From positions 179,071-243,070 of the forward strand of contig JBJHDA010000001.1 in assembly GCA_050486305.1 (NCBI GenBank): a stretch of DNA of 64,000 bases, in the 5' to 3' direction. A program made the position numbers and the translations under genes. Source of the stretch: Candidatus Saccharimonadota bacterium (lineage in GTDB: Bacteria > Patescibacteriota > Saccharimonadia > Saccharimonadales > SLHW01). Under the pieces are notes generated by a model, which was given only the letters and a program-made list of their open reading frames with translations, was not told the DNA's origin and ran no database searches. Positions 38,458-55,654 of this stretch are shown here, one piece after another; position 1 is the stretch's first letter; the number at the start of each line of letters is the position of its first letter.

Positions 38458-38459
38458 AG

Positions 38460-38951: not shown

Positions 38952-39056
38952 GCGACAAAGTATAACACATATATTCAAATATTAGAATGTTTGCATATAC
39001 AAAAAAATAATGCTATTTTTGAGACATAGAAACGTAATACAAGGATTGCAAAAAAC

Positions 39057-39578: not shown

Positions 39579-40117
39579 TCATGAATAAAAAGCACCTTAC
39601 CCTATCTCTAGCCTCAGCAGTTATCATTCTCGCTCCACAAAGAGTACTAGCACATTGTCCGCTATGCACGGCAGGCGCTGGTGCAATAGCAGCAGCCGCA
39701 CTCGCGCTGGGAGTAAGAATAGAAGCGGTGGGTATCTTGGTTGGCGCATTTGCAGCAGCTCTCGGATTTTATCTTGCGAATCGGATAAAACGACGCTACG
39801 TCAAAGGCCAGAAATGGCTTGTTGTTATCGGTACATTTCTCCTAACTATAGTGCCGCTGGTTCCGTTTATGTATGTCGAGCCTTACCCGCTTGTCATTTA
39901 TTGGTTCGGTGAAATGGGCTCGGCTTTCAATCGTGTTTATTTGGTAGATCGATTTGTATTCAGCTCGATTATTGGCGGAATGCTTATGACCATTTCACCT
40001 CTAATAAGCGCTGGTTTGACAAAGTTAAGGGAGGGCAAACGGCTGCCGTATCAAAGTCTTTTGGTGACGTTCATACTGTTATTCGTCGTATCATTTATCG
40101 TGCAGTTTGCAATCTAG
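39575..40117 (+). CDS. Membrane protein with N-terminal CxxC (HCPLC)
   Basis: 180 aa, ATGA overlap with the DUF411 gene. AHCPLCTAGAG immediately after the signal-like segment, then 4-5 TM. Confidence 0.5.
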   Translation: MIMNKKHLTLSLASAVIILAPQRVLAHCPLCTAGAGAIAAAALALGVRIEAVGILVGAFAAALGFYLANRIKRRYVKGQKWLVVIGTFLLTIVPLVPFMYVEPYPLVIYWFGEMGSAFNRVYLVDRFVFSSIIGGMLMTISPLISAGLTKLREGKRLPYQSLLVTFILLFVVSFIVQFAI

Positions 40118-40120
40118 GCT

Positions 40121-40552
40121 ATGGAAATTCTTGCAGTTTTTTTTGCGATAACAATCCTATTCATTGTGTTGTTAGCGATGAAAAAAGTAACAACTTATCG
40201 CTTCTGTGTTTTATGTGTTAGCGTTAGTCTTAGTTGGGTCGGACTCCTTCTGTTGCTCCAGCTTGGTTTTTTTGAGAATGTCGCTCTAGTTGCCTTGCTG
40301 ATGGGCCAGAGTGTTGTGGGTTTATACTATTTTGCAGAAAAGCGGCTGCCGCAGCAGTATATGGTCTTTCGCCTCGCTGGCCTTCTAACGCTTACGTACG
40401 CTGCTTATGCGATTCTTATCGGTTTTAATCTGCTACCCTTGTTTTTGCTTGTTCCAGTCTGGTCTATAAGCGGCTTACTTTATGCCTACAGAAATACACC
40501 GCGAGTAAAATCAACGGTAGAGCACATTTTGGCTTGTTGCCGCGACTGGTAG
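40121..40552 (+). CDS. Membrane protein with intramembrane CxxC (CVLC) and C-terminal CC
   Basis: 143 aa, 4 TM. RFCVLCVS in TM2, ends HILACCRDW. Confidence 0.5.
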   Translation: MEILAVFFAITILFIVLLAMKKVTTYRFCVLCVSVSLSWVGLLLLLQLGFFENVALVALLMGQSVVGLYYFAEKRLPQQYMVFRLAGLLTLTYAAYAILIGFNLLPLFLLVPVWSISGLLYAYRNTPRVKSTVEHILACCRDW

Positions 40553-40561
40553 AGGGTGCAT

Positions 40562-41887
40562 CTATTCGTAAATGAGCTCGGCGACCATGCCACCGGCTAC
40601 GTGCATAAGCTCATGGCAGTGGAACATCCAGCGTCCAGGGTTGTTGGCCGTAAATTCGACGTCATATATTTCGCCCGGAGTAAGCGGTTGATTGTTCCGT
40701 AGCTGTCGAGGCCCTGGCGGCACTTCGTTGCCGTCGATCGCTGCGATTTCGTACTGATGACCATGCAGGTGCATTGGGTGTATGGCGCTAGAGCTGGAAT
40801 TGATCATACGCACGCGAACTCGATCGCCTTCAGATACGCTGAAAACCTCTGGGTTTGGAAAAATCCTGCCGTTAATCGGATAAATACCTGCTTCAGGACG
40901 TTCGGTCAATACCATAGTGAATTCTTTGTCAGGCGGCTGGTAGCCGATTGGCTCTATGACAAACGGGCCTGACAGTCCCATGTCAACGTGTTTATATTCG
41001 TCACCATGGTGCGAACCGTGCGAGTGGTAGTATCGTGTACCTGCTGGATCTGCTGTGAACTCGTAGGTGAAGGAATCACCCGGCTTGACGGCATCCTGGG
41101 TTACGCCTGGCACACCATCTGCTTCTATCGGGACATCGATGCCATGCCAGTGTACGGTTGTCGCTTCTGGCAGCTTATTTTCAAATATAATACGAACTTG
41201 GTCGCCTTCAGTTACTCGAATCTCAGGGCCCGGCAACTGCCCGGCGAACCCCCAAGACTCCAGCTGTACACCATCTGCATACTCCCACACAATGTGCTCT
41301 GCAGTTAAACGAAACTCTTTTACGCCGTCTACGACTTCATACTCGAGCCGTTCTATTGCATCCTTATATGAACGTATCGGTAAATCCCCTTCATAGGGTT
41401 CAATTCCTCGGTCTATCGACATTTCATGACTAACCCTCGAGCTGCCTCCAGTGCCATCATCAGTCACAGTCAAAACGGCGTCATGTCCGTTATGGAACTT
41501 ACAGTTTACGAGCGTTTCCTCTACCGCACGATCAACGCGGAGGGTCGTTGTCTCTCCTGGGTTTATAACTTCGTCGAAATTTAACTCATCTATAGTCACA
41601 GAGTGCCGTAGACTTCCCTCGTTATAAAACTCAATTACATCACCGACGTTCGCCTCTAAATAGCCAGCCGGCAAGCCTGCATCAACTTGCTCAAAATACA
41701 TCTCACCAACGTTAACGGTTATTGTGGCAGACTCTGAATCACTGACAGTGGCTTCGTCAGTAAAAACAAAATATGCCTGCGCAGCGAGAGAAATTGTTAA
41801 GAGTGCGAGAGCAACCCCGACTATTTTTACGTAACGGCTTTTTTTCAGCAGTTGAACTAAGTCACTATTGAGTAATGTATTCAGCAT
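40562..41887 (-). CDS. Multicopper oxidase with extra N-terminal cupredoxin domain
   Basis: 441 aa. Copper-ligand motifs HWHG, HSHG, HPMHLHGH, HCHELMH. N-terminal TM plus a plastocyanin-like domain. Confidence 0.85.
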   Translation of the reverse strand: MLNTLLNSDLVQLLKKSRYVKIVGVALALLTISLAAQAYFVFTDEATVSDSESATITVNVGEMYFEQVDAGLPAGYLEANVGDVIEFYNEGSLRHSVTIDELNFDEVINPGETTTLRVDRAVEETLVNCKFHNGHDAVLTVTDDGTGGSSRVSHEMSIDRGIEPYEGDLPIRSYKDAIERLEYEVVDGVKEFRLTAEHIVWEYADGVQLESWGFAGQLPGPEIRVTEGDQVRIIFENKLPEATTVHWHGIDVPIEADGVPGVTQDAVKPGDSFTYEFTADPAGTRYYHSHGSHHGDEYKHVDMGLSGPFVIEPIGYQPPDKEFTMVLTERPEAGIYPINGRIFPNPEVFSVSEGDRVRVRMINSSSSAIHPMHLHGHQYEIAAIDGNEVPPGPRQLRNNQPLTPGEIYDVEFTANNPGRWMFHCHELMHVAGGMVAELIYE

Positions 41888-43982
41888 AATTATTAGGTAT
41901 GGTTAATATACCGTTCCCTCCCCAGGCTCCGTCGTGCAGTCGAATGTGTCCGAGCGTTTCAAGCTCGTCTACATCTATGACGCTTATGACTCGAGCGTAT
42001 TTATTTGATACGTATCCGTAGTAGCCGCCACCTTCCTTTTCGCCAAAAACAATACCGTGCGCGCCTGCGGCTGCTGGCAGCGTAGTAATTACTTCAAGGG
42101 TATCTAGTGAAATTACGCTAACGTCGCCAGTTCCAGTGTTTGGTACGAAGACATGCTCACCGTTTGGCGCAGGCATGGCCCATATCGGCAGTGAGCCGAC
42201 TTGCACATCTTTTACATGCTCCATTGTTTCAAGGTCAACAAACATCACCCTTCCTTCTAGCAGCAGGCTTATCATTGCGTATTTTCCATCATTAGTTATT
42301 TGGGTAGCAAGCGGGAGGCCGGGTGCATCAAATGTCTCAACCACTTCTTCTGTGTCGAGGTCGATAATATCGAACTTTTCAGATAATGTTGCGGCGACTG
42401 TCATCCACTTGCCGCTCGGATCAATCCATATACCATGCGGACCGAATGATGTCTGGATTTCTCCGATTTCTTCAAGGTCACTGTTTAGTATGACGACTTT
42501 GCTCTCGTTGTTTATCGTAACGTAGATTCTGTCTTTATCTGGGTCCGGGTGGACGAAAAGATGTGCTGGCGCGTTACCTAGCGTAACGGTGTCTACCACT
42601 TCTTTGGTCTCAATGTCTATTTTGGAGACTTTGTCGCTGTGCCATTGTGTCTGGAATATATAGCGATTATCGTATGTGTTCCATAAGTTGTGTGGATTGT
42701 TAAAGTTTTCGTCCGATATTATTTCTTTCGTCTGCCAAGTTGCAGCATCAAGTACAGTAATCGTACCCGGGAATTCTTGCCCTTCAATTCGTTCAAACTG
42801 CGTGTTGAGCCATATTTCACCAATGCCTGGAATCTCAGGTGCAGACAGCAGCTCGCTTTCATCAAATTCGTCATCCGGCGGCCAGAGTGAATCTACTGGG
42901 GCCTCTTCGCCTACTACCACCATACCCTTCATGTATGGATGGGTTGGGCAGATGTATTCGTAAACACCTTCCTCAGTAAATGTATGACGGAACTCCATCC
43001 CGTCTTCCAGATGTCCGACGGGTGCCATATCACTGGAGAACGATTCGGGCCCGCTTATGGAATGTATCGGGTGAGTATGAACCGTATGATTCTCAGAGCC
43101 ATGAGCCCTTACCTTGCTTGGTCTTGGCCAAAAACTTGTAAATGCGTCGTATTCGACCTCATCTTCACCGCAGTGGTGCCATATCACGGTATCGCCTTTA
43201 TTGATCTCCAGCACATCCTGATGGAACCACGGCGGCGCTTCGCTAACGCAAACGAAATGCTCCCGCGCTTCTCCTTGGGTTCGGTTGCTGATTGTTAAAA
43301 CAAGCCCAACCGCAAGAACAGCAATGATGGTGACTGCCATTAGCGCCTTGTTGAGCCACGGTAGTTTTGGTTTTTTCGGAAGTTCGGTACTATTTGTAGT
43401 TAATAGCGGTGCACCTCGTAAGCTAGAAAATAGTAAGAAATAGAGCCCTAGGTAGCCCGTCAATACTGCACCTAGCACAAGCAACAGATAAAAGTTCATA
43501 ATAAACAAGTACGAAAAGTCGGTTACTTGCATCATGACGCCAAGAATCAGCACGGTGAACCACGATACGCCAGACAGTCCTCCGGTAGATGCTAGCAGCC
43601 ACAGTTTATTGCGCACTTCATCTGTCGCAAGGCTCTTATCCTGGTGACGCTGCAGCATAGGCAAGATTTTCTTGTGGAAGATATAGCCGTTTATCGAAAG
43701 TATTGTTACGATGGTCATTTTTACCCAAAAGAGCTGGCTGCCGTCGCTCAAGCTGAAGTAGTGCGGGTTCACAATAACCAAAGATATACCGCTAAGAACC
43801 AGCAGTGTTAGCCCGGTAACGACGACCTTCGATATTGTCTCTATCAGTCTTAGTTGGCCACTAGTGATTGTCTTATCCCAGATGCTACGCAGGAACGTAG
43901 CATCGGTGGTCGCCGCACCACCTACTCCCATGGCGACACCGACAAGATGAATAATTAACAAAATCGGCTGTATAAATTCCAT
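41865..43982 (-). CDS. Fusion protein: polytopic membrane domain + type-1 cupredoxin + YVTN-type beta-propeller
   Basis: 705 aa. About 7 TM in the first 240 aa. GDTVIWHHC...YEYICPTHPYMKGMVVV (C-x2-H-x2-M blue-copper pattern). Then repeated ~40-aa units (RIYVTINNESKVVILN, KFDIIDLDT, GRVMFVDLET, GDVSVISLDT, ARVISVIDVD). Confidence 0.75.
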   Translation of the reverse strand: MEFIQPILLIIHLVGVAMGVGGAATTDATFLRSIWDKTITSGQLRLIETISKVVVTGLTLLVLSGISLVIVNPHYFSLSDGSQLFWVKMTIVTILSINGYIFHKKILPMLQRHQDKSLATDEVRNKLWLLASTGGLSGVSWFTVLILGVMMQVTDFSYLFIMNFYLLLVLGAVLTGYLGLYFLLFSSLRGAPLLTTNSTELPKKPKLPWLNKALMAVTIIAVLAVGLVLTISNRTQGEAREHFVCVSEAPPWFHQDVLEINKGDTVIWHHCGEDEVEYDAFTSFWPRPSKVRAHGSENHTVHTHPIHSISGPESFSSDMAPVGHLEDGMEFRHTFTEEGVYEYICPTHPYMKGMVVVGEEAPVDSLWPPDDEFDESELLSAPEIPGIGEIWLNTQFERIEGQEFPGTITVLDAATWQTKEIISDENFNNPHNLWNTYDNRYIFQTQWHSDKVSKIDIETKEVVDTVTLGNAPAHLFVHPDPDKDRIYVTINNESKVVILNSDLEEIGEIQTSFGPHGIWIDPSGKWMTVAATLSEKFDIIDLDTEEVVETFDAPGLPLATQITNDGKYAMISLLLEGRVMFVDLETMEHVKDVQVGSLPIWAMPAPNGEHVFVPNTGTGDVSVISLDTLEVITTLPAAAGAHGIVFGEKEGGGYYGYVSNKYARVISVIDVDELETLGHIRLHDGAWGGNGILTIPNNYAEYITQ

Positions 43983-46387: not shown

Positions 46388-46415
46388 ACTTTGAAGTTCA
46401 GTTCTGGCTTGGGTA

Positions 46416-46452
46416 TACAAAAAGTCAGAACCGTTTTCACCGTTCTGACTTT
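46416..46452 (-). terminator. Hairpin terminator (better on minus strand; may act bidirectionally)
   Basis: AAAGTCAGAAC...GTTCTGACTTT 11-bp stem. The minus-strand reading is followed by TTTTTG. Confidence 0.45.
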
Positions 46453-46489
46453 GCCTGCTCAATCTTGGCTCAACACACTGGTCTAGTAC

Positions 46490-46527
46490 GAAAATAAAAA
46501 ATCCAGTAGTGTGAATGCTTACTGGAT
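46490..46527 (-). terminator. Rho-independent terminator downstream of NERD-helicase gene
   Basis: ATCCAGTA-11 nt-TACTGGAT stem, followed on the minus strand by TTTTTTATTTT. Confidence 0.55.
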
Positions 46528-46548
46528 ACCCTGTAAAATTTATACTAT

Positions 46549-46575
46549 TGGCTCCGCGTACTGGTCTAGAACCCA
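46549..46575 (-). other. tRNA 3'-half-like fragment (possible degenerate att repeat of tRNA-Asn 3' end)
   Basis: Minus-strand TGGGTTCTAGACCAGTACGCGGAGCCA: T-loop-like TTCTAGA, 7-nt acceptor strand, discriminator G, CCA. About two-thirds of positions match the last 27 nt of the tRNA-Asn at 55457..55531, in the same orientation. No 5' half is present. Confidence 0.35.
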
Positions 46576-46616
46576 TAAACAGGGGTAAAGTGAGACAAAT
46601 GAGACACCTGTGGCTA

Positions 46617-48215
46617 CTATTTGATATTTTTGCCCGTAAAGACGATTAATCGCGATCGTGCTCTTGTCATGCCTACAAGTAGCGCCTCCTCTTTGTCTTC
46701 TTTAGAGAAAACGTCGGTACATATTACGACTTTACTATCGAGGCCTTTTAAGTCGTAGGCATTGCCGTTGATTATCGAGTTTGATTTCTCGAATTTTTCC
46801 CACTCTACATCCCTGACCAAAGTAAACGTTACACCGTCTTTTAGCTTAGTGTTTTTCCTATTTCTTTCTGACATTACGCTTGTAGAGTGTTTTGAGATGC
46901 TGACAACCATGATTTCCCTAGGCGCAACCCCAGACTTAAGTAGTTCATTTATTTTGCCTACTACTTCTTGGGGGTACTTGCTATAGTCCACGTTTATTCC
47001 TTTATACGGAATTTTATGTATCTCAGGTTCTATACCAAGAGGATTTCGCCTTACTTTACCTACTCGTAATGGTGTCATTTTTCTAATGTAGGCATTTATG
47101 CTGGCGCTGTTTCGATAGTTGTATTTCAGGGGATATAAAACGACATCGTCTCTTTTTATTAACTGTTCTAGCGTGCTCCTCTCACTTCTTCCAAATGTAT
47201 CTTGGTTCAGGTCAATATAAATTCTGAATCTACCGCTAATAAAGCCACCATTGAGATAACCTTCTAGAGTTTTTATTTCATCATTATTTAAATAATCTTG
47301 AGCCTCATCCAATATTAAGTAATCATATTTATCATGGTCTACGCTGAGCATTGTTGTTGTCGTAACATGAACGTATTTTGGTTTATGGTTTAATCTTGCA
47401 GTTACATCGAAGGCAACTTTGTTCCTGATAGCTCGATTGAAGCAAACATAAAGTGTCTTTACGCCAGCTTTTTCATTTTCCACTAGCTGCTCGACGGCCA
47501 GTATAGTTTTACCCGAGCCAGGTGGACCTTCTACAACCATCCTTTTTACAGCTGCTAGAGCATCAAATGCAATATTTTGTTCCTCGCTTAATAACAATAC
47601 TTTTTCGTCGACAGCAGAGCTAATATCCCTTATATAGTCCTTATAATTAGGAACTAATATTTCTTTGATCTTTTCCTGAGTGTTATCTGAGAGGGAACGA
47701 TGTCCTCCGAAGCGATTTTGAGTATAAGCTATAAGTCTACTCACGTATTTTCGTGGATTAAGCATAAAACCTGTATCGAAATATTGCTCTATGTCCCATG
47801 CTGTATCGGGTGCTTTGTTTAGCTTGTACTCCGGGAATGCACATGCATAATGACCAAGTGGATTTTGTTCGAGCGCAACTCCTCTACTCTGCAAGAAGCG
47901 CCAAAGCCCATAGAAGTTACTTTTAGCTTGACCAAAGGGGTCTATTTTGTGCTGACTACCCCAGTGATCTTTCGTATACCAGATTCCATCTTCTATCGAG
48001 ATTTCACCACCCTTAACTTCTAGTACGTATATGCCAGCAGACCCCACAAATACAAAATCAATTTCGCGGTCTTGCCCTCTATTTGGTGTAAAGGAGCAGC
48101 TTGCGACTACAAAACTAATCTTGCCCTTTAGCTCAGAAGATCTGACCGTTTCGAGCACACTCAATACTTCTTTTTCTACTGAAGGCATGCGTTTCTGAGT
48201 GCCGTATACAATCAT
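46617..48215 (-). CDS. NERD-domain nuclease fused to SF1 (DUF2075/UvrD-like) helicase; Nhi-like
   Basis: 532 aa. NERD pattern REIDFVFVGSAGIYVLEVKGG, Walker A GPPGSGKT, Walker B YLILDEAQDY, C-terminal helicase motif LLVGMTRARSRLIVF. Confidence 0.8.
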   Translation of the reverse strand: MIVYGTQKRMPSVEKEVLSVLETVRSSELKGKISFVVASCSFTPNRGQDREIDFVFVGSAGIYVLEVKGGEISIEDGIWYTKDHWGSQHKIDPFGQAKSNFYGLWRFLQSRGVALEQNPLGHYACAFPEYKLNKAPDTAWDIEQYFDTGFMLNPRKYVSRLIAYTQNRFGGHRSLSDNTQEKIKEILVPNYKDYIRDISSAVDEKVLLLSEEQNIAFDALAAVKRMVVEGPPGSGKTILAVEQLVENEKAGVKTLYVCFNRAIRNKVAFDVTARLNHKPKYVHVTTTTMLSVDHDKYDYLILDEAQDYLNNDEIKTLEGYLNGGFISGRFRIYIDLNQDTFGRSERSTLEQLIKRDDVVLYPLKYNYRNSASINAYIRKMTPLRVGKVRRNPLGIEPEIHKIPYKGINVDYSKYPQEVVGKINELLKSGVAPREIMVVSISKHSTSVMSERNRKNTKLKDGVTFTLVRDVEWEKFEKSNSIINGNAYDLKGLDSKVVICTDVFSKEDKEEALLVGMTRARSRLIVFTGKNIK

Positions 48216-48315
48216 TGTCCTGGTATCATATCACGCGTGTGTTGTTCATTAACTTCGACAATTAAGCAACTAGCTTGTATTGTTTATGTTCGAGTTGTCC
48301 AAGATCTCTTAATGG

Positions 48316-49533
48316 CTATGTCTTGGAAAGATTACTGATTAATGCATCTATTATGAGCTTAATGCCGTGCCAGTCCTGCTCCTTGATTAAGTTATTATTC
48401 TTTTGCGCTGATTTTAGCTTATCTTTGAACGCTTGCTGTATCTTCGATTTCTCAAGGAGCTCCCCTTGATACTTACCAAGTTTATTCATGTACCCAGTCC
48501 ACTGGACTTGCCTGAATTCGCCTTTAGTGTTTTTGAGGGTATCTTCACCAAGGTAAAGTTCAATTGCTCCAGCCAGTCCGTTAATGTTCATTTTTGCGTT
48601 TCCATTGGGGCCTATTGTCGGATAGTTATTGGCCAATTCAATGTCAGGATAATGCATAACTCTGTAGTTTGCAGGCAGTGAGAATGTTTTTAACGCTGAA
48701 GTAGCCTCATGTGCAGCTGAATCATTATCAAAAATCGCTATAATCCTGTTTGATATGCCTGCTGCAGCAAAGCTTTTCAATGTTTTGACCAAAGCACTAG
48801 CTCCGCCTTCAGTTTTATAGTTAGTGTCAAGAAATTTAATATAGTTTGTGAGGTGTGGGTATAGAAGCTCAATCGACTCTTTCAGGACCCTACGATCAAA
48901 GACTCCTTCAGTAAGAACGATTGGCGGGGAGCTATATCGCTGCATATTACCTGCGGCCTCACCAAATTCAACCATGGAATCGTCATACCAGCCTTCATAG
49001 GCAAACTCGCTTACATCTAAAGTTACGTTTGACATGTCGTCAATATTTTTTAGGCTGTAATAGAGTGCAAAACAGGAATCATACTCTAGGATATCTAAAA
49101 GTTTTGTCTTATTCTCTTCAGAAAGCCTTTTATTGCCGTTATAGGAGCTTAAAAGCTCGCTAATCTGACGATTCTTTTCCGAATAGTATTCTTTTAAGAG
49201 TTTATCGTTAACGGAAGGGGCCCTTTCTAGCTCGTAGCCAGCAACCTCCTGAAGAAAAAGCCTAAAGGTTTCTTCGCTGTAGCCGAGCACATTCAAGCGC
49301 TCTTTTAGCTCCTTCGCCCTCCTAGCAAAAAACATAATAGAGAAGTTTTCTCCATCATCCTCATAGTCTTTATACGCATTTAATTTTCTATCTTTGATGA
49401 TGTTTATAGCTTCGTCGCCAGAGGCTTTAATGATGTCGTCTTTGCTAAATAGGCTCATTATCGAATAGTCTAAGTCATTCCGCCATTGGAACACCTCTTT
49501 ATCGTCTACATATAGATAAGCAAACACACTCAT
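48316..49533 (-). CDS. Toprim/DUF4435-like putative nuclease with unknown ~190-aa N-terminal domain
   Basis: 405 aa, ATGA overlap with the upstream gene. The C-terminal half has PPIVLTEGVFDRRVL (Toprim Glu) and RIIAIFDNDSAAHEA (DxD). No P-loop. Confidence 0.55.
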   Translation of the reverse strand: MSVFAYLYVDDKEVFQWRNDLDYSIMSLFSKDDIIKASGDEAINIIKDRKLNAYKDYEDDGENFSIMFFARRAKELKERLNVLGYSEETFRLFLQEVAGYELERAPSVNDKLLKEYYSEKNRQISELLSSYNGNKRLSEENKTKLLDILEYDSCFALYYSLKNIDDMSNVTLDVSEFAYEGWYDDSMVEFGEAAGNMQRYSSPPIVLTEGVFDRRVLKESIELLYPHLTNYIKFLDTNYKTEGGASALVKTLKSFAAAGISNRIIAIFDNDSAAHEATSALKTFSLPANYRVMHYPDIELANNYPTIGPNGNAKMNINGLAGAIELYLGEDTLKNTKGEFRQVQWTGYMNKLGKYQGELLEKSKIQQAFKDKLKSAQKNNNLIKEQDWHGIKLIIDALISNLSKT

Positions 49534-50705
49534 AAGTTAGCCCTATTCGATTTTTTGCTTAAAGGAGTGCGGTTTTTTTTGACGATTTTCTTTTTATTAT
49601 CGAGGATCAGTTTTTTCAGGTCTTCTTCAGATTCATACGCCTTTATTCGACCATTTAGGTACCCGAGTCGGTATGAAATACCGTCGCTCATAAGGCGCCA
49701 ATTGGTTTCTTGCAGGATATCGTTGACTAGCTTCTTTAAGGTTTTCCTGCTGTCGTAATCGGCTCGATCTGATTTACTGTCTAAGCAGCTGAAGCCTACA
49801 CGTACATCTTGTCCAATCTCTGGTTTATCGAGGGTAAACTCAATATACCCCGCTTCTTCAAGTGGTTCAGATAGTAGTGGTATCAGTTCAGCAATCTTTG
49901 GTTTTTTTATCTCTTTTACTGCGTCGTATATATGCTTGTTGTCTCGCTTTTCCTTCATCTCCTCGCCTAGTCGTGCCATAGTTTCGAAATCTCGTGTTAT
50001 TTTGAAGAGTCGCTCTCGGAATTCTTTGTCTTCGAGACAAAAATGATACCGGTCTTTATCGAAATCGGGGTCAGGCTTCTCTTCCCTACTTGAATAGCTC
50101 ATCTTCTCTTTAAAGCTATGACTGCAGTTAGTGCATGAGTATGTGATTGTGATTGATTTTTTGGTCTTGCTTGTTTTATGTGTCACCTCACTCTGACATT
50201 TCGGGCAAAGGGACGGCTTTACTTCCCGTGCTTCTCCGTCTTCCCAAAAAGCGCTGTTTTTCTCGCAGTGTTGACACCGAAGCATAAATAAAACTTCTTC
50301 GGGGTCGTCAAAATCGTATTCTTCGCCTCGGTGCATGAGAGATTTATCGATGATTCGCATCCCCTTCTTGTTGCAATGGCGGCAGTACGGTTCTTCCGAT
50401 AGTCGCGCGTTAGCTATCTGCTCGTCCTTCGCTTCGTCGCGAGCCATCCAATCATTGATTGTGTTTTCACGTTGTTCATAGCGGCGAAGCAACTTATTGC
50501 CGACCGTTTCCATGTAGAAGATATTCACCAAGAACGCATTGCCTGGCCTATCGATTTTCTCATTTTTGGGTAGTTTACTTTTAAATTCAGAGCAGAATTT
50601 ATCGTAATAAGCCTTGCCACGGCGAGCAGCATCGACAGTCAATCTGTCGTAGAGATATTCATAATGATGGCGTTCTTTTAAGTGCATATATACGTGAACA
50701 ATCAA
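49530..50705 (-). CDS. Double zinc-ribbon protein, unknown function
   Basis: 391 aa (TTG at 50705, or ATG at 50687). Four CxxC pairs: CRHC...CQHC and CPKC...CTNC. Charged helical C-terminal half. No NTPase motif. Abuts the effector stop codon. Confidence 0.6.
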   Translation of the reverse strand: MIVHVYMHLKERHHYEYLYDRLTVDAARRGKAYYDKFCSEFKSKLPKNEKIDRPGNAFLVNIFYMETVGNKLLRRYEQRENTINDWMARDEAKDEQIANARLSEEPYCRHCNKKGMRIIDKSLMHRGEEYDFDDPEEVLFMLRCQHCEKNSAFWEDGEAREVKPSLCPKCQSEVTHKTSKTKKSITITYSCTNCSHSFKEKMSYSSREEKPDPDFDKDRYHFCLEDKEFRERLFKITRDFETMARLGEEMKEKRDNKHIYDAVKEIKKPKIAELIPLLSEPLEEAGYIEFTLDKPEIGQDVRVGFSCLDSKSDRADYDSRKTLKKLVNDILQETNWRLMSDGISYRLGYLNGRIKAYESEEDLKKLILDNKKKIVKKNRTPLSKKSNRANL

Positions 50706-51224
50706 CTACATAAGATAAAGCCAGCTGAGTGAAACTGCTGCTGATGCTCCTCCAATAACGAAAAGCATCAGCGCATCATTAAAATGCTGGTGCTTGTTCG
50801 TAGCGATACACGCAGATACATGGACTTGAGAAAGCAGTTCCTCTTCATAGGCTTTACTCGTCAACGTCTTCATTTTCTTTTTATACGAAGTAAATGGCAT
50901 TTCTTTGATGTGGTTAAAGTACGTTAGTGATAACTGATCTTCAGTAATAGACTGCCCCTTGTTAGACAAACTCGAGCGTAAAGACCGCAAACACTTAAGT
51001 AGGCCGTATATCAAAAAAATATAAGCGAGCGTAATTAGTATCACTAGCAGGATTCCGACGTCCAGGTATTTTTCAGAGAGTTGCTGTAAAAAAAGTGGGG
51101 TAACGAATGCCATGAAGGCGCCCTGGAGAGCAAAAAATATTCCTAATTTTTGATCGACTGCTCTTATCCACTCGTGAATACGAGCTAGGTTCTTTTCGTA
51201 TACAGCAACTTTATCAAATGTCAT
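50706..51224 (-). CDS. Pycsar-type transmembrane effector-like protein (3 TM)
   Basis: 172 aa, ATGA overlap with the cyclase gene. N-terminus ARIHEWIRAVDQKLGIFFALQGAF (the x-D-x-K-then-TM pattern recalled for Pycsar TM effectors), two central TM and one C-terminal TM. Confidence 0.6.
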   Translation of the reverse strand: MTFDKVAVYEKNLARIHEWIRAVDQKLGIFFALQGAFMAFVTPLFLQQLSEKYLDVGILLVILITLAYIFLIYGLLKCLRSLRSSLSNKGQSITEDQLSLTYFNHIKEMPFTSYKKKMKTLTSKAYEEELLSQVHVSACIATNKHQHFNDALMLFVIGGASAAVSLSWLYLM

Positions 51225-52057
51225 GACAGCATACCGTCCTGTACTTTATCTTTACATATGTCGCACCATAGTCCTGGTGCGTAATAAACCCTATCATCTT
51301 TAATATCATCGTTAGTACTAGTGTCAAAGCTTTGCCACAATTCTGAGTCGGGTTGTGGGTTTCCTGCTAGGTCATGACCGCAATGCATAATCGCATACCT
51401 ATGCTTTGTGTTGAGTGCTCTATAGGTAGCTTCCGAGATTACTAGCATTGAACCTTTGGTTGGGTCAAAATACCTATCAACCTCGTAGATGTCTTTAGAT
51501 AATGATGCGACTTTTGCTGCGTTATTTATCAAGCGCCCCGCCCAAACTTCATTATTGTTGCGCGGTCCTCTTTTGCCCATTCGTTTAACAAGCAGTTTAT
51601 CGATACTTATTCCTGCCTTGAAGTTAAATACATGTTGCTCATCTTGGAATTTTGGCCTGATATGTTTTCGGAAAAAACTACTGAAGGTTAACGCAGCAAC
51701 TAAAGCGCGAAAAGGTGCATCTTCTCCTTCAAAAATTCCAAATGCACCGTCTCCCTTGATGTCTATATATTCAGCTTCAATGCCTTCGAGCGAAAGAACA
51801 TCTATCAGCGTTTGAGTGAAGTAATCATAAATTTTTGCCATTGTTTTAGAGTGTTTTTTGTAAGACATCTTCGAGGAACGATCAAGATCAATAAATAAGC
51901 AAACAAACTTTTCATCACCGCCTACCCATACTGGCGATTCAAGATATGATTCTTCATAGATTCGCTTTATAGAACTTATTTCTTCGATGCGAAAATTATC
52001 GTATCGATATTCTGCTTTGTTTTTTAAGTCTTTATTGATATCGTCGATTGGTTTCAT
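51221..52057 (-). CDS. Class III nucleotide cyclase-like protein (Pycsar PycC-like candidate)
   Basis: 278 aa. FVCLFIDLDRSS (metal Asp strand), IDIKGDGAFGIFEG (K-x-GD), NEVWAGRLINNAAKVAS (G-x-x-V/I-N-x-A-x-R/K-like). Cys/His-rich C-terminus HCGHD...WCDICKDK. Confidence 0.6.
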   Translation of the reverse strand: MKPIDDINKDLKNKAEYRYDNFRIEEISSIKRIYEESYLESPVWVGGDEKFVCLFIDLDRSSKMSYKKHSKTMAKIYDYFTQTLIDVLSLEGIEAEYIDIKGDGAFGIFEGEDAPFRALVAALTFSSFFRKHIRPKFQDEQHVFNFKAGISIDKLLVKRMGKRGPRNNNEVWAGRLINNAAKVASLSKDIYEVDRYFDPTKGSMLVISEATYRALNTKHRYAIMHCGHDLAGNPQPDSELWQSFDTSTNDDIKDDRVYYAPGLWCDICKDKVQDGMLS

Positions 52058-52070
52058 ACTAGTCCTTTAG

Positions 52071-52703
52071 CTATATAGTATTCCTTGATGGTCCTGTTAG
52101 CACCTGAACCACCCTCCCTACAATCACTGCGTCCGACTGATCTTCTTCGTGAAGAAAAATAGGGCCAAAATCTTCGGAGGATTCTGAAATTAAGGCAACT
52201 TGATTGTTCAGTGGGTCTGGGTAGAACTTTTTTATATTCGCCATCCCATCGACAACAGCAACGACGTAGTCACCCTCGACTGGCTGGAATGACTTGCTGT
52301 CAACTACGACAAAGTCACCATCATTTATTGGCTCGCCTTGTACTCTTGCCCTATTCATAGACATGCCTTTGGCCCTAAGAGCGAAAAGATCGGTTCGATT
52401 GTTTGTTCGTAAAAGCTTAGAGGATACTTTTAGGTGTCCTTGAACTCTTTCATCTGCAAATATGTCAGCAGGACCACAGTTAGCTGAACCTACTATAGGT
52501 ATAGCCACGAGCTCAAAATTTCTGTTTGTGTTTTCCGCCATACCGTATGAGAGCATAAAACCTTTAGCCTTCAGCTTGTCAAGGTGATATTTAATAATCT
52601 GAGGACTCTTAGCTCCGACTTTTTCTGCTAGTTCACTCAAACTGTAACGTTCGATGCTTTCTTCCCTCGCTATATTAAGTAGCTTTTCCTGTATTCTATG
52701 CAT
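52071..52703 (-). CDS. LexA/S24-family repressor-peptidase (wHTH + S24 domain)
   Basis: Trimmed to MHRIQEKLLNIAREE...LSELAEKVGAKSPQIIKYHLDKLKAKGF (wHTH). C-terminus LRAKGMSMN (Ser) ...GDFVVVD...VAVVDGMANIKKF (Lys). Confidence 0.75.
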   Translation of the reverse strand: MHRIQEKLLNIAREESIERYSLSELAEKVGAKSPQIIKYHLDKLKAKGFMLSYGMAENTNRNFELVAIPIVGSANCGPADIFADERVQGHLKVSSKLLRTNNRTDLFALRAKGMSMNRARVQGEPINDGDFVVVDSKSFQPVEGDYVVAVVDGMANIKKFYPDPLNNQVALISESSEDFGPIFLHEEDQSDAVIVGRVVQVLTGPSRNTI

Positions 52704-52709
52704 ATATCG

Positions 52710-52718
52710 ATTATAACA
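52710..52718 (-). promoter_or_regulatory. Extended -10 (TGtTATAAT) 6 nt upstream of the repressor ATG; leaderless-type promoter
   Basis: The minus strand reads TGTTATAAT-CGATAT-ATG. Confidence 0.45.
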
Positions 52719-52892
52719 CAGTAAAGTTTTACGAACGTTGTACATAAAACTATTTTAAAACTACAACTCGTAGCGTATAGTGCAGACATCAGGACGCTAT
52801 ATGTGTGGTCTTGAAATAAAAATTAATGCGAAAGCAAAGGCAAACAAGTATTTACTCTATGCGTTGGCCTTTCAATATAAGGAGGGTACGTT

Positions 52893-53222
52893 ATGTACCA
52901 AAAATTACAAAATATAAACAAGAACAATGACAGGAATACTACGCCTTTTTTGACCAGGCTTGTCGTTTGGCAGAAATCGGCTGTAGTGCCTGGGTTAAAC
53001 CCATCCACCTGGCGAAAAGATCCTTGCGGTGCTTTGATGAGATGGGATCTTTACGGTGATACAACTCCAGGCGGTTTTGGCTGGGAGGTTGACCATAGGA
53101 TTCCGATTGCTGGTGGCGGCGGAAACAGTATTGCCAATCTTCAGGCACTTCAGTGGCAAAATAATCGAAGCAAAGGTCGCAGTAGTTCACAGGGTTACTG
53201 CGTCATTACCTACAGGAGCTGA
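52893..53222 (+). CDS. HNH endonuclease
   Basis: 109 aa. Strong SD AAGGAGGG. WEVDHRIPIAGGGGNSIANLQALQWQNNRSKG (H-N-N/H pattern). Confidence 0.75.
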   Translation: MYQKLQNINKNNDRNTTPFLTRLVVWQKSAVVPGLNPSTWRKDPCGALMRWDLYGDTTPGGFGWEVDHRIPIAGGGGNSIANLQALQWQNNRSKGRSSSQGYCVITYRS

Positions 53223-53224
53223 CC

Positions 53225-53689
53225 ATGTCAAAAGTAAAAAAGTCAAAAACGAATGTGGCAGGCCTCAGCGCTGTTTACAGTGGCGTACTGCAAAACCTAT
53301 CAATGATGCAGTCTGCCGACAATGCCATAGAATCAAAAGCCAGTGGTGTCGTTGCTTTTTCATTAACAGCCATTGCGTTATTGGTAAGCAATATCCAGGA
53401 GTGGCATCTTATTGCTGTATCAAGCTTATTCATTTTGATCGCAGCACTTTATTTGGGTGTTTGGTGTCTGCGTATACGAAATTACCGTAGCGCAACCGTT
53501 GTCTTTGAGGATAATCCCGATTATTTCAGCAAAGACAGCGAACAGCTCGTGAAGCAATTAATATCAGATGCTGAAGGAGCTAACACCGATGCGTCAGCCA
53601 TTCTTGATAAAAAATCATTAGCTTTCCGGCGGGCGCTTATATTATTCGTGGTCGGTACTTTAGTCGGTATATTTTCACTTAATTTTTAA
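53225..53689 (+). CDS. 3-TM protein resembling the Pycsar-type effector at 50706..51224
   Basis: 154 aa, starts 2 nt after the HNH stop. Same layout as the effector: polar N-terminus with D-x-x-x-x-K, two TM, CLRxxxxRS after TM2 (WCLRIRNYRS vs KCLRSLRS), C-terminal F-x-x-AL-x-LFV-x-G TM. Confidence 0.5.
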   Translation: MSKVKKSKTNVAGLSAVYSGVLQNLSMMQSADNAIESKASGVVAFSLTAIALLVSNIQEWHLIAVSSLFILIAALYLGVWCLRIRNYRSATVVFEDNPDYFSKDSEQLVKQLISDAEGANTDASAILDKKSLAFRRALILFVVGTLVGIFSLNF

Positions 53690-53713
53690 CTCGTAGCAAT
53701 ATAAGGAGCAGCA

Positions 53714-53854
53714 ATGTCAGAAAAATCACCAAAGCAGAATCCCCTACCGAAGCCGAACAAGACTCGTGTATACAAAGGCACAGGAAGGCCAGCCGTGCGG
53801 CAACCACTTCCGCCACCTAATCGGACTAGACCATATCGTAAGGGCTTGAGGTAA
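53714..53854 (+). CDS. Possible 46-aa basic Pro-rich micro-protein
   Basis: Below the ORF-track cutoff. AAGGAG 5 nt upstream of the ATG. Translation MSEKSPKQNPLPKPNKTRVYKGTGRPAVRQPLPPPNRTRPYRKGLR. Confidence 0.3.
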   Translation: MSEKSPKQNPLPKPNKTRVYKGTGRPAVRQPLPPPNRTRPYRKGLR

Positions 53855-53866
53855 TCATTCACACCT

Positions 53867-54310
53867 ATGGCGGCACCGAAGGTAAGAAGAATTCTAAAGC
53901 GTTTATTGCAAGATCCTGAATTTCAGGAGTTATCTGCCAAGGCTCAGGCTGATCCGAAGAACGTAAAGCAATACGTCATGCAGGCTCGAAAGAGATTCAA
54001 TCTATCACCCTACTGGGAAATTTTACTCGAACATATCCTAATACTCGGTAGTTTTAACGAAAAAATTTTACACAGCGGCTTAGCGATCGAGCGCAGTCAT
54101 GACCCTGTCACAGGTCGCGAATACTTTAAGATCGTCGTCTTCCCGGAAACAACACAAAAAGAAGTAGTTGCTACATACGGTCGCATTACAAAGCAGTATC
54201 AGCAAAGCGAGCAAACTATTGATGTGCGCTCAGCCAAACGTGATGAAGTCGAGTATCGTGCGCTCCAGCTTCATTTAAAAGGAAAAAACAAGGCACATCA
54301 AGCGTGGTAA
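53867..54310 (+). CDS. Hypothetical protein
   Basis: 147-aa ORF with no recognisable motif. Confidence 0.45.
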   Translation: MAAPKVRRILKRLLQDPEFQELSAKAQADPKNVKQYVMQARKRFNLSPYWEILLEHILILGSFNEKILHSGLAIERSHDPVTGREYFKIVVFPETTQKEVVATYGRITKQYQQSEQTIDVRSAKRDEVEYRALQLHLKGKNKAHQAW

Positions 54311-54758
54311 CTGGGGCTCGAAGCAGTTTGCCTTCAAGGGTCTTCTCAAATGCGGCAGCTGTGGTGCTGATGTCATTGGTGAGGAAAAGTTCAAAAGACT
54401 AAAAAGCGGTGATGTGAATCGTCATGTGTACTATCGCTGTACTAAGCGAAAAGATCCGAATTGCCCAGAGCGATATATCAACGAAAAAGTATTATGCGAA
54501 ACGCTGATGCAATTTATAGAGAAAGAAGCCGATAATTTGGATATAAGCAGTTCCCTGCGTGCAAAGGTAGAGCAACACACGGAAGCCACACGGTCATTGC
54601 TTGACCATTATAGTGTGAAGGTCAGCCTAGCCAACCCTTTGAGCGAATACGCCCGCTATGTACTCACAAAAGGCATCGAAAAGGATAGGCATGAGCTGGC
54701 CAAGGGCATACAGCAACGGCTTCTATTCAAGAACGGGAAGTTAAAGATCAAAGGCTAA
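54279..54758 (+). pseudogene. Truncated large serine recombinase (only zinc-ribbon + coiled-coil C-terminal part)
   Basis: The frame is open from 54279 (TAA at 54276). Reads ...KRGNWGSKQFAFKGLLKCGSCGADVIGEEKFKRLKSGDVNRHVYYRCTKRKDPNCPERYINEKVL..., the recombinase zinc beta-ribbon pattern. The resolvase catalytic and recombinase domains are missing, and there is no ATG before the GTG at 54414. Confidence 0.6.
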
Positions 54759-54761
54759 CTA

Positions 54762-55142
54762 CTATTGAGTTAGTTGAATGACAATCATTGTTCCGGCTAC
54801 AAGTGCGACAATCGGGAAAATTAGATATAAAACGATAGCTCTAGCTGCACTTCCTATTCTAGAGCTTATTGCTTTCCTGTCTTTATCGGAAATTGCAATT
54901 TTTTCTCCTTTTTCCGTGAGCTCCAAGCCCTTGAATTTATAGCTCCAGTCTCCGATTGATATGCCTCCAGAAACACTTCTCGTTATTGCAAGATTCTTGC
55001 TTATAAGATAGCTCACGGTATTTTCACCATACGCATCAATTGCTGAATCATACCTGTAGCCAGTGCTGGAGTTGTCTAATATTGTGTCTGCGCACTCAAT
55101 AGCTTTTCTGTTTTTAGCATAGTGGTATAGCCTCTTTATCAT
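54762..55142 (-). CDS. Hypothetical tail-anchored membrane protein
   Basis: 126-aa ORF with C-terminal TM AIVLYLIFPIVALVAGTMIVI. Confidence 0.45.
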   Translation of the reverse strand: MIKRLYHYAKNRKAIECADTILDNSSTGYRYDSAIDAYGENTVSYLISKNLAITRSVSGGISIGDWSYKFKGLELTEKGEKIAISDKDRKAISSRIGSAARAIVLYLIFPIVALVAGTMIVIQLTQ

Positions 55143-55400
55143 AATGTGTACATTCTAATATTAATTACATTATTATCTATATCTATTATATAAAATCTTT
55201 TTTAACGGGGGCTGGTAAAGCAACAAGGTCTGCTTTATGCTCACTGGATAGTCATGAGCTAGAGCAGTCTAAGTCGGAACGGAATTACGGAGGTTAGAGT
55301 GCTAGCTGCGTAATGTTTACTGGTTCTAGCACAGCTAGCCACTTATTTTATGATTATGGCAATCGGTCATGAACCCGGTAACAGATGAGGGGTCATTTGA

Positions 55401-55435
55401 CAAAAATGAAAAGACCAGGTCTAGTAACCTGGTCT
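55401..55435 (-). terminator. Rho-independent terminator after tRNA-Asn
   Basis: AGACCAGGT-CTAGTA-ACCTGGTCT 9-bp stem, followed on the minus strand by TTTTCATTTTTG; 21 nt downstream of the tRNA. Confidence 0.65.
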
Positions 55436-55456
55436 ACCTCTGTTGATGCTGAGTTT

Positions 55457-55531
55457 GGCTCCCGGGGCCGGACTCGAACCGGCAACCTATGCGTTAACAG
55501 CGCACCGCTCTACCATTGAGCTACCCGGGAA
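55457..55531 (-). tRNA. tRNA-Asn (anticodon GUU), CCA encoded
   Basis: Reverse complement TCCCGGGTAGCTCAATGGTAGAGCGGTGCGCTGTTAACGCATAGGTTGCCGGTTCGAGTCCGGCCCCGGGAGCCA. Anticodon loop CT-GTT-AA; clean cloverleaf. Confidence 0.95.
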
Positions 55532-55654
55532 TATCGTTATTAGACTGCTGAATTATACCGAACTGTTTGGATTACTTCAAACAGTTCTTAGCGTATAGCA
55601 AATGCGGGGACACTGGCAAGACAGCTATATGCTGTTCAGCGTAGCTATTATTTA

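Follow-up and report, generated by a model that had tools for sequence, protein, structure and literature searches.

Organization of the Locus

The window, as the whole stretch of 64,000 nucleotides is called here, contains a compact run of minus-strand genes in which a LexA-like S24 gene is followed by a nucleotide cyclase gene (PycC) and by the gene for a predicted three-transmembrane (TM) effector (PycTM) (Table 1). The S24 stop codon sits 13 nt ahead of the PycC start. The PycC stop overlaps the PycTM start in TCATGACA (ATGA), an overlap already described in an earlier sequence-only reading of this DNA, and both ORFs are present at the coordinates given there, on the minus strand. The surrounding DNA forms a low-GC island of about 9 kb (46400-55410), with a GC content of 0.412 versus 0.467 in the remaining window.

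Table 1. Features of the island, with positions in the window and the basis of each assignment.
Feature	Position	Strand	Basis or remark
NERD nuclease-helicase fusion, 532 aa	46617..48215	-	PADLOC; Pfam NERD and SLFN-g3_helicase
Multi-zinc-ribbon protein, 385 aa	49530..50687	-	Directly downstream of PycTM; contexts of homologues
PycTM, predicted three-TM Pycsar effector, 172 aa	50706..51224	-	PADLOC; Pfam PF18967; TM segments; conserved Lys
PycC, predicted uridylate cyclase, 278 aa	51221..52057	-	PADLOC; PDB; AF2/Foldseek; residue conservation
LexA-like S24 repressor, predicted self-cleaving, 210 aa	52071..52703	-	Pfam Peptidase_S24; PHROG; LexA alignment
Extended -10-like element TGTTATAAT	52710-52718	-	Ends 6 nt before the S24 ATG; just downstream of the palindrome
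27-bp palindrome AGTTTTATGTACAACGTTCGTAAAACT, candidate operator	52725..52751	-	9-nt arms with 1 mismatch; 9-nt spacer
Small HNH protein	52893-53222	+	Pfam, E=4.6e-4; PHROG endonuclease VII, E=2e-8
154-aa three-TM protein, distantly PycTM-like	53225-53689	+	PADLOC PycTM, E=1.8e-4
Large serine recombinase remnant, C-terminal third only, catalytic domain missing	54282..54758	+	tblastn; Pfam
tRNA-Asn(GTT)	55456..55530	-	ARAGORN; Rfam RF00005, 72.7 bits

The 3' end of the tRNA-Asn gene points toward the island, and this gene likely marks both the integration site and the right border; a terminator-like hairpin is present at 55412-55435. No convincing direct repeats, such as a duplicated tRNA 3' end, were found flanking the island, so the left border (~46.4-46.6 kb) is set by GC content only. 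The recombinase remnant corresponds to residues 271-422 of the 434-residue recombinase of locus L052 (47% identity, E=4e-42) and matches Pfam Zn_ribbon_recom above the cut-off (E=2.5e-10). The NERD-helicase matches the PADLOC models RTasNERD-Hel (E=4e-33) and Nhi (E=7e-11) and is a candidate for a separate defence gene in the same island. On the opposite strand, the gene for the 154-aa protein starts 2 nt after the HNH gene, and the pair is divergent from the S24-Pycsar genes. The 154-aa protein has the PycTM-like three-TM layout, and its lysines before TM1 and TM3 align with the hallmark lysines of PycTM. At least 10 metagenome loci likewise have a homologous small HNH gene that diverges from S24. 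Scans of viral contigs gave no close relative of the island and a single distant PycC-PycTM pair, on an IMG/VR contig.

The 385-aa protein has at least 594 homologues, the best 120 listed being 64-86% identical to it. Elsewhere these homologues adjoin large serine recombinases, a ParB-N6_N4 methyltransferase, an HTH_23 gene and a terminase, with no Pycsar, and three distant relatives on IMG/VR contigs have the same backbone. The gene comes after PycTM also in L006, L008 and L010. For the AF2 model of the protein (pLDDT 72), a fold search found nothing at E<0.04. The gene for the 385-aa protein belongs to the conserved backbone of a mobile element of Saccharibacteria. A role for the protein as a third component of Pycsar was rejected, since it is far more widespread than PycC and is found on mobile-element backbones without Pycsar; it probably stands outside the system.

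Organism-named relatives of GltX (64-67% identity) are all from Candidatus Saccharimonadales, and the contig that holds the window measures 629,769 bp. [quoted passage not shown] The decayed tRNA-linked island, the LexA-like gene upstream and the second cyclase of related loci, which is described below, are context that the earlier reading did not contain.

The Cyclase and Its Catalytic Residues

The cyclase belongs to the PycC branch of the class III nucleotide cyclases and is laid out as an N-terminal helix, a cyclase core and a C-terminal ribbon with a predicted zinc site. The PADLOC PycC model PDLC02369 matches it with E=1.1e-61 and a second model, PDLC00763, with E=5.6e-46; these two models also rank first for AnPycC, the Anabaena enzyme, and the matches extend through the C-terminal region. 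The general Guanylate_cyc model gave no match in a Pfam profile search. The nearest solved relative by single-sequence comparison with the PDB is AnPycC (8jsz_A, 'uridylate cyclase', E=5e-25), and a profile search extends this match over residues 21-276 (E=3.4e-57). The AF2 model of the cyclase (pLDDT 90.7) likewise retrieves 8jsz as the best Foldseek match (E=2.5e-19, TM 0.74/0.79). BcPycC (7r65) is the runner-up, so that by both sequence and fold the two Pycsar cyclases stand on top of the PDB ranking with generic class III cyclases after them. Identity to AnPycC is about 27-35% (27% in the Foldseek alignment). The profile search and the structural comparison had both been proposed in the sequence-only reading, and their outcome agrees with its assignment.

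The three class III hallmarks that the same reading had picked out are all present and contain residues that are invariant across 47 homologues: D57 in FIDLD, K101, G102, D103 and G104 in IKGDG, and W172, A173, G174, N178 and K182 in WAGRLINNAAK. The metal-binding aspartate pair, on which that reading had made the cyclase assignment depend, is retained as D57/D103 and aligns with D62/D106 of AnPycC. The transition-state residues N178 and K182 are intact. The residues F60, K104 and F109 of AnPycC contact UTP and are needed for cUMP synthesis according to mutagenesis (PMC11224242). Their counterparts in the window are F55, found in 45 of the 47 homologues, and K101 and F106, found in all 47.

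The Zinc Ribbon and Comparison with Known Pycsar Cyclases

The ribbon is a feature of clade D in a clade scheme that reportedly goes back to Tal et al. 2021. In AnPycC (PDB 8JSZ), a clade D enzyme, zinc is bound by C221, C223, C260 and H263; the ribbon is conserved throughout the clade, and both cUMP synthesis and defence need it (PMC11224242). The Cys/His positions in the tail of the window protein, C226, H228, C265 and C268, align in register with these ligands, and the four-position ribbon is thus present and predicted to bind zinc. Two of the four ligands are swapped, with His in place of Cys at 228 and Cys in place of His at 268, giving C-x-H...C-x-x-C in the window versus C-x-C...C-x-x-H in AnPycC. 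All 47 homologues have C226 and C265; at position 268, 46 of them have Cys or His, and at position 228, His or Cys occurs in 33 and Asn or Asp in 12. The sequence-only reading was right that a Cys/His-rich C-terminal extension exists, but not that it is unusual, because its ligands align with those of the published ribbon and such a tail is ordinary for clade D. The rank of AnPycC as best solved match and the two top PADLOC models in common with it speak indirectly for a place of the window cyclase in clade D.

AnPycC has been shown experimentally to synthesize cUMP, with a PycTM partner (PMC11224242). The window cyclase has in common with it the N-terminal helix, the class III core, the ribbon and the PycTM partner, together with the metal aspartate pair, the three residues that contact UTP and the four positions of the zinc ligands. 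It differs in its branch, whose members come mostly from CPR genomes, in its host, a CPR episymbiont-type bacterium rather than a cyanobacterium, and in the LexA-like gene directly upstream. BcPycC of Burkholderia cepacia (7R65), a clade B cUMP synthase, has the same fold and catalytic motifs, but it is without a zinc ribbon and is closer to the second cyclase of related loci than to the window cyclase. A recent preprint defines a Pycsar-2 subclade with a C-terminal domain named AGS-C, which presumably is the zinc ribbon; the window pair fits the description of Pycsar-2, whereas CPR hosts and LexA-like regulators do not figure in the sections consulted (bioRxiv 10.64898/2026.08.12.744502).

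The close relatives of the cyclase come mostly from CPR metagenome-assembled genomes, and the branch is accordingly found predominantly in CPR genomes, and several homologues bear the plain annotation 'class 3 adenylate cyclase'. In most close relatives the locus has a second cyclase, which is clade-B-like and resembles BcPycC (E ~1e-22); the window locus is without one. In other CPR genomes, the same Pycsar module is nested within type I restriction-modification (R-M) operons. The literature collection searched contained no paper on Pycsar in CPR/Patescibacteria, the two being co-mentioned only in a cold-seep virome atlas, and nothing relevant that links Pycsar with LexA.

The Effector

The 172-aa protein is placed by its sequence in the PycTM / pJV1-spdB3 family of three-TM effectors. 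It matches the PADLOC PycTM model PDLC02364 (E=2.2e-30) and Pfam PF18967 (E=1.5e-8, 35.4 bits against a gathering score of 27.2), and it has hydrophobic segments at residues 27-45, ~55-75 and 151-169. These matches and segments bear out the sequence-only reading, which had named the protein a Pycsar TM effector and had taken AVDQK before a TM helix as its hallmark: the lysine of this motif, K26, which precedes TM1, is 100% conserved in 43 PycTM-family sequences. K144, before TM3, is 97% conserved in the same set. A sequence search of the PDB gave no solved structure for PycTM or for a 405-aa protein. A PycTM-family gene is encoded in 43 of 47 clustered cyclase-bearing loci and adjoins the cyclase in all locus maps displayed.

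The LexA-Like Gene Upstream

The S24 ORF begins with an ATG at 52703, its frame being open from 52745. The protein matches Pfam Peptidase_S24 (E=2.8e-17) and the PHROG family phrog_4, 'transcriptional repressor' (E=7e-20); the match of its N-terminus to LexA_DNA_bind is weak and below the Pfam cut-off (E=0.0012). In comparison with E. coli LexA, the G-x-S-M motif keeps its serine, and the lysine and the glycine of the cleavage site are likewise invariant, with a cysteine preceding this glycine. The Ser-Lys dyad and the cleavage site are intact, and the protein is predicted to cleave itself. It is probably encoded by the first gene of a PycC-PycTM operon.

Of 20 close loci, 11 have an S24 gene adjoining the Pycsar module, and among the 80 closest metagenomic homologues of the window S24 none precedes a PycC. 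Elsewhere, the closest homologues precede R-M systems, CBASS or housekeeping genes: S24 stands ahead of CBASS in L065 and probably in L099, ahead of type II R-M in about 20 loci, and between phosphoketolase plus acetate kinase and MscL in a housekeeping gene order. The housekeeping placement indicates that the family includes chromosomal LexA genes, not just repressors of elements. Furthermore, the relationships among S24 proteins are discordant with those of PycC. On both grounds, S24 was rejected as a dedicated, co-evolving Pycsar regulator; because it is not specific to Pycsar and its relationships are discordant, the argument for co-regulation is the 13-nt spacing by itself. The palindrome and the -10-like element may represent an operator and a promoter. 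Other S24 loci also have upstream palindromes, with differing sequences. An operator motif common to S24 loci was rejected: only L006 and L008 share one, TACGCTAnTAGCGTA, and the palindrome of the window is its own.

Repressor-linked defence operons are known from lambda cI-rexAB, from CBASS regulated by CapH/CapP and from the WYL regulators BrxR/CapW. The window shares with them a repressor gene directly upstream of an abortive-infection or defence operon, and also the recurrence of one repressor family before differing defence systems, here Pycsar, CBASS and type II R-M. The window regulator differs in being a putative S24 LexA/UmuD-like protein, neither a WYL protein nor an HTH plus metallopeptidase pair. 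The contexts tentatively suggest that LexA-family S24 genes in CPR bacteria head an interchangeable slot for defence cargo, occupied by Pycsar in the window and 10 related loci and elsewhere by CBASS or type II R-M, a generalization that is possible but still doubtful.

Proposed Mechanism and Alternative Explanations

Profiles, structure and context agree with the sequence-only reading that a Pycsar cyclase and a TM effector are paired in a CPR-type genome. The preferred interpretation, to which a probability of roughly 80% is given, is that the two genes form a Pycsar system for abortive infection, of the clade D or 'Pycsar-2' type, making cUMP, located on a decayed element behind a LexA-like gene. 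In this interpretation, the pair is the cargo of a decayed, tRNA-linked integrative element. PycC would be a class III cyclase that works as a homodimer and carries a zinc-binding ribbon. Judging from known systems, phage infection would raise its output, and UTP would most likely be converted to 3',5'-cUMP. The translationally coupled PycTM would sense cUMP and disrupt the membrane, and the infected cell would stop growing before the phage cycle is completed. Since the pair lies 13 nt downstream on the same strand, PycC and PycTM are probably transcribed from the S24 promoter, which would be autoregulated and may be DNA-damage responsive. Should the two cyclases of related loci work together, a locus with one cyclase may act in another way.

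Which nucleotide is made is extrapolated from AnPycC, to which identity is just ~27-35%. The same architecture could produce another messenger to which the TM effector responds, cCMP as in clade E or a purine cyclic nucleotide such as the cGMP of Pucsar. The 27% identity to the characterized uridylate cyclase in the Foldseek alignment leaves room for this, as does the diversification of substrates among Pycsar-related cyclases, Pucsar also having three-TM effectors (bioRxiv 10.64898/2026.08.12.744502). It is nevertheless rather improbable. The residues essential for cUMP synthesis in AnPycC are conserved in the window cyclase and, save for F55 in two cases, in all 47 homologues, whereas for the clade E enzyme the positions reported to matter are F100, R142 and Q144, a different set by comparison of published residues (PMC11224242). 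Both top solved matches are cUMP synthases. The N-terminal helix, the zinc ribbon and the exclusive TM partner make up the Pycsar-2 signature, for which a preference for UTP is predicted, and Pucsar is sister to a different subclade, Pycsar-1 (bioRxiv 10.64898/2026.08.12.744502). The zinc-ribbon architecture and the AnPycC-like UTP residues also argue against membership in Pucsar itself.

A different question is whom the module serves. Instead of host immunity, it could be an exclusion module of the mobile element, like rexAB with lambda cI, or a relic that no longer functions. The recombinase is truncated, and the gene downstream of PycTM belongs to a mobile-element backbone. S24 has matches among phage repressor families, does not share the relationships of PycC, and in L010, L013, L016, L020 and L023 is divergent from a backbone of ParB-methyltransferase, HTH_23 and recombinase genes; the distant PycC-PycTM pair on an IMG/VR contig points in the same direction. 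The decay of the element means that the system could be a relic, yet both ORFs are intact, every catalytic, specificity and zinc residue is conserved, and translational coupling is retained, while some S24 homologues occur in plain housekeeping contexts. This explanation is considered unlikely, though less so than another messenger, and it is compatible with the preferred interpretation, because the molecular mechanism would be identical. Far less probable than either is a housekeeping signalling pair, in which a physiological cyclase and a membrane protein would be unrelated to phage defence. The failure of Guanylate_cyc to match and the plain adenylate cyclase annotation of several homologues could be cited for it. 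However, the matches of both proteins to Pycsar-specific models are strong, the two best structural matches are Pycsar cyclases, the low-GC island holds further defence-like genes, the module of relatives is embedded in R-M operons and mobile elements, and its distribution is patchy.

Implications

The pair in the window is a standard Pycsar system and not a new one, and its cyclase provides a natural example of the clade D zinc ribbon with Cys and His swapped. Abortive-infection immunity based on cyclic pyrimidines evidently reaches into the Candidate Phyla Radiation, where this PycC branch is carried mainly by genomes of Saccharibacteria, the Parcubacteria group and Gracilibacteria that are well under 1 Mb. 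That genomes so reduced have kept a suicide system implies that they are under real pressure from phages. The same system can now be compared in versions with one and with two cyclases. The recurrence of Pycsar, CBASS and R-M directly behind LexA-like genes in CPR bacteria provides a testable idea on how toxic immunity is controlled. If the idea of a shared slot is true, several unrelated immune systems would depend on a single switch that cleaves itself and possibly senses DNA damage, and the Pycsar operon of the window would be induced by repressor self-cleavage upon infection or DNA damage, a logic of defence regulation not described for Pycsar. The suicide of an infected, ultra-small episymbiont would then also sever its attachment to the host bacterium.

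The Cyclase and Its Effector

Both minus-strand reading frames that the sequence-only reading had taken for a Pycsar cyclase (PycC, 278 aa) and its transmembrane effector (PycTM, 172 aa) are present, and the PycC stop codon overlaps the PycTM start codon, as proposed, within GCTGTCATGACATTT. An AAGGA Shine-Dalgarno-like motif lies 5' of the PycC frame. The 172-aa protein is recognized by the PADLOC PycTM model (E = 2.2e-30) and by the Pfam PycTM profile PF18967 (35.4 bits, gathering score 27.2). The 278-aa protein has no match among Pfam profiles, though it matches the PADLOC Pycsar cyclase models PDLC02369 (E = 1.1e-61, residues 4-273) and PDLC00763 (5.6e-46). Judged by these matches, which lie far beyond chance, the Pycsar pair is real, and a functional clade D-type Pycsar system is the best-supported reading of it.

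A database search gave 119 PycC homologues, of which 47 were aligned. Among these, both aspartates that bind metal in class III cyclases, D57 (FIDLD) and D103 (IKGDG), are invariant, in keeping with the hallmarks read earlier, as are K101, F106, N178, K182, C226, W264 and C265. The closest solved relative by sequence is 8jsz_A, named 'uridylate cyclase' (E = 5e-25), which is AnPycC from Anabaena, and the runner-up is 7r65, the clade B cUMP synthase BcPycC from Burkholderia cepacia; the family profile matches 8jsz_A with E = 3.4e-57 over PycC residues 21-276. An AlphaFold2 model built from the homologue alignment (mean pLDDT 90.7) gives the same order in a Foldseek search of the PDB, with 8jsz at the top (E = 2.5e-19, TM 0.74/0.79), 7r65 second and generic adenylate/guanylate cyclases below.

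AnPycC is a clade D enzyme that produces cUMP, for which F60, K104 and F109 are required, and it binds metal via D62 and D106. Its C-terminal 'zinc-binding ribbon' (C221, C223, C260 and H263) is a feature conserved by clade D alone, and both cUMP synthesis and defence against phage together with the partner AnPycTM require it (PMC11224242). In HMMER alignments, with the one-residue difference between the numbering of the chain and that of the paper taken into account, F60, K104 and F109 correspond to F55, K101 and F106 of the window PycC, D62 and D106 to D57 and D103, and the four ribbon ligands to C226, H228, C265 and C268, with identity swapped at ligands 2 and 4 only. Since its ligands map onto those of AnPycC, the Cys/His-rich tail that had been considered unusual is the known clade D hallmark and is already explained by the literature. 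The top two PADLOC models for AnPycC, queried as residues 28-273 only and rebuilt from the printed alignment, are the same as those for the window PycC. A 2026 preprint describes a 'Pycsar-2' subclade with the same architecture as the window PycC and places the cGMP-making 'Pucsar' clade as sister to another subclade (10.64898/2026.08.12.744502).

Hydrophobic segments at residues 27-45, about 55-75 and 151-169 bear out the three-TM layout of PycTM. The lysine of its AVDQK motif, K26, lies just before TM1 and is invariant in 43 family members drawn from related loci; conservation among them reaches 97% for K144, ahead of TM3, and exceeds 90% for W19, F103 and Q133. The PycTM sequence has no match among solved structures. 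The related PucTM is reported to assemble into a hexameric cylinder enclosing a central channel and to show an abortive-infection growth phenotype (10.64898/2026.08.12.744502), and by analogy it may serve as a working model for the window effector. PycC, a zinc-ribbon class III cyclase, would make cUMP upon infection, and PycTM would sense the cUMP and abort the infection by collapsing the membrane. The operon would probably be transcribed from the promoter of the LexA-like gene upstream.

Gene Order in Related Loci

In most close relatives PycC adjoins a second cyclase of 233-284 aa (PADLOC PDLC02367, 1e-48 to 1e-68), found in the four loci tabulated and in L012, L013, L015, L016, L020, L024, L032, L037 and L044. 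This enzyme is clade-B-like (BcPycC, about 1e-22) and without a zinc ribbon; both metal aspartates are kept, but roughly half of the copies have Tyr/Glu in place of the Asn/Lys pair. It is absent from the window, where the gap of only 13 nt upstream of PycC (52058-52070) leaves no room for it. The single-cyclase layout of S24, PycC, PycTM and zinc-ribbon protein is common to the window and locus L010. Type I restriction-modification (R-M) genes also accompany the pair, which is flanked by hsdS and hsdR in L014 and L024 and by hsdM and hsdS in L021, and is downstream of hsdM-hsdS in L017. L019 also belongs with these Candidate Phyla Radiation (CPR) loci that pair PycC-PycTM with type I R-M.

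Features of the window and of related loci
Feature	Position	Strand	Remarks
NERD nuclease-SF1 helicase fusion	46617-48215	-	PADLOC RTasNERD-Hel 4e-33, Nhi 7e-11
405-aa protein	48316-49533	-	4-nt overlap with zinc-ribbon gene
Multi-zinc-ribbon protein	49530-50687	-	385 aa
PycTM	50706-51224	-	172 aa
PycC	51221-52057	-	278 aa
S24 repressor	52071-52703	-	
Palindrome	52725-52751		27 bp
18-nt repeat	52763-52780		upstream of S24
Small HNH protein	52893-53222	+	
154-aa three-TM protein	53225-53689	+	2 nt after HNH gene; weak PycTM match (PADLOC 1.8e-4)
Large serine recombinase remnant	54282-54758		C-terminal third, without catalytic domain
tRNA-Asn	55456-55530		3' end abuts right edge of island
18-nt repeat	55581-55598		beside tRNA-Asn promoter
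Copper-handling cluster	36403-43982	-	
Second cyclase, L002	7201-7986		
Second cyclase, L004	7238-7993		
Second cyclase, L006	6220-6951		
Second cyclase, L008	5270-6001		
Example S24-homologue locus, L077	1571-3539		
Example S24-homologue locus, L065	5671-8451		CBASS operon after S24

The Upstream S24 Repressor

PycC is preceded at a distance of 13 nt by a same-strand gene for a LexA-like, predicted self-cleaving repressor (Peptidase_S24 2.8e-17, PHROG repressor family 7e-20), and the N-termini of its homologues (MHxIQ...) place its true start at 52703. Alignment of the window copy with E. coli LexA and nine homologues taken from related loci shows three residues without variation: the serine of G-x-S-M, the lysine and the glycine of the cleavage site. 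In the window copy a Cys precedes this glycine, as in the cleavage site of UmuD. An extended -10-like element, TGTTATAAT, just upstream of the start and the 27-bp palindrome beyond it are the putative promoter and operator. An 18-nt repeat containing TAGCGTATAG occurs twice in the region, and the S24 promoters of L006 and L008 have a common palindrome, TACGCTAnTAGCGTA, with the same half-site as this repeat.

Of 20 close loci, 11 have S24 beside the Pycsar module, nine of them on the same strand, with spacing from overlap to about 220 nt and a small ORF in the wider gaps; in five of the 11, S24 is divergent from a ParB-methyltransferase/HTH_23/recombinase backbone. A Pycsar-specific partnership is rejected on two grounds. 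A metagenome scan with the window S24 gave at least 374 relatives, and PycC lies downstream of none of the best 80 (L061-L140, 41-48% identity); kinship is also discordant, the window S24 being closest to those of L002, L010, L013 and L023 and the window PycC to those of L006 and L008. In about 20 of the best 80 loci S24 is followed by a Dcm-type methyltransferase and a restriction enzyme (type II R-M), and in L065 by a CBASS operon (HNH-SAVED effector 4.6e-140, CD-NTase 4.3e-73, E2 1.3e-29), as is probably the case in L099, given its matching gene sizes and similar N-termini. Some homologues have housekeeping genes as neighbours: those for phosphoketolase and acetate kinase to one side, those for MscL and a P-type ATPase to the other. 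L070 is another example of this variety of neighbours. From the varied neighbours and the discordance it follows that S24 is a CPR LexA-family gene often heading a variable defence-cargo slot; the window copy may be a repressor of the element or the LexA of the host itself.

The Surrounding Island

The GC content is 0.412 over about 46.4-55.4 kb, compared with 0.467 elsewhere in the window, and 0.394 in PycC-PycTM. The recombinase remnant has 47% identity to residues 271-422 of a 434-aa relative and matches Zn_ribbon_recom. No flanking repeat was found around the island. A decayed integrative element with defence cargo is the best description of it.

Three same-strand genes lie 3' of the Pycsar pair. 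The first, encoding the multi-zinc-ribbon protein, was considered as a Pycsar component and rejected, since its homologues sit in mobile-element backbones without Pycsar. It has at least 594 homologue clusters, the best 120 of which share 64-86% identity. In other Saccharibacteria these homologues lie beside serine recombinases, a ParB-N6_N4 methyltransferase, an HTH_23 gene, a terminase and a roughly 500-aa protein, with no Pycsar genes nearby, and distant relatives on IMG/VR contigs have the same backbone. We read the family as a backbone gene that marks a Saccharibacteria mobile element; its structure model gave no fold match. Other examples of this conserved family are in L052, L055 and L058. 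The 405-aa protein matches HEPN_Toprim_N (4e-4) and PADLOC AriAB (5e-5, residues 192-287) weakly and has no relatives among the fetched loci. The NERD-helicase, at the island's left end, may be a defence gene in its own right. On the opposite strand, the 154-aa protein bears the PycTM hallmark lysines ahead of TM1 and TM3, and homologues of the small HNH protein are divergent from S24 in at least ten metagenome loci. The two may form a separate effector pair, or the 154-aa protein may be a second cNMP-responsive effector.

Host and Distribution

The window glutamyl-tRNA synthetase has thousands of relatives, and those among the best 120 that bear organism names are all 'Candidatus Saccharimonadales bacterium' (64-67% identity). 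Named PycC relatives come from Saccharibacteria, Parcubacteria, Jacksonbacteria, Nomurabacteria and Patescibacteria. The CPR host suspected in the sequence-only reading is supported. A copper-handling cluster of a CopA-type P-type ATPase, a multicopper oxidase and a 705-aa beta-propeller/cupredoxin-like protein is a large outlay for a 0.6-Mb genome.

When one genome per GTDB species was scanned, PycC loci at 42% identity or more proved to be mostly from CPR MAGs, and relatives at 27-38% to be from cyanobacteria, proteobacteria and others. This PycC branch is largely a CPR one. Some MAGs with close PycC relatives are labelled Gammaproteobacteria (L010, L015, L018, L037), Actinomycetota (L011) or Fusobacteriales (L021), which could reflect binning or labelling error or episymbiont-host transfer; L010 has a CPR-type mobile-element backbone. 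The literature search found no paper treating Pycsar in CPR bacteria. The strong CPR distribution of this branch is modestly new. So is the finding that CPR genomes repeatedly place Pycsar, CBASS and R-M behind LexA-like genes, a pattern suggestive of control logic common to these defences.
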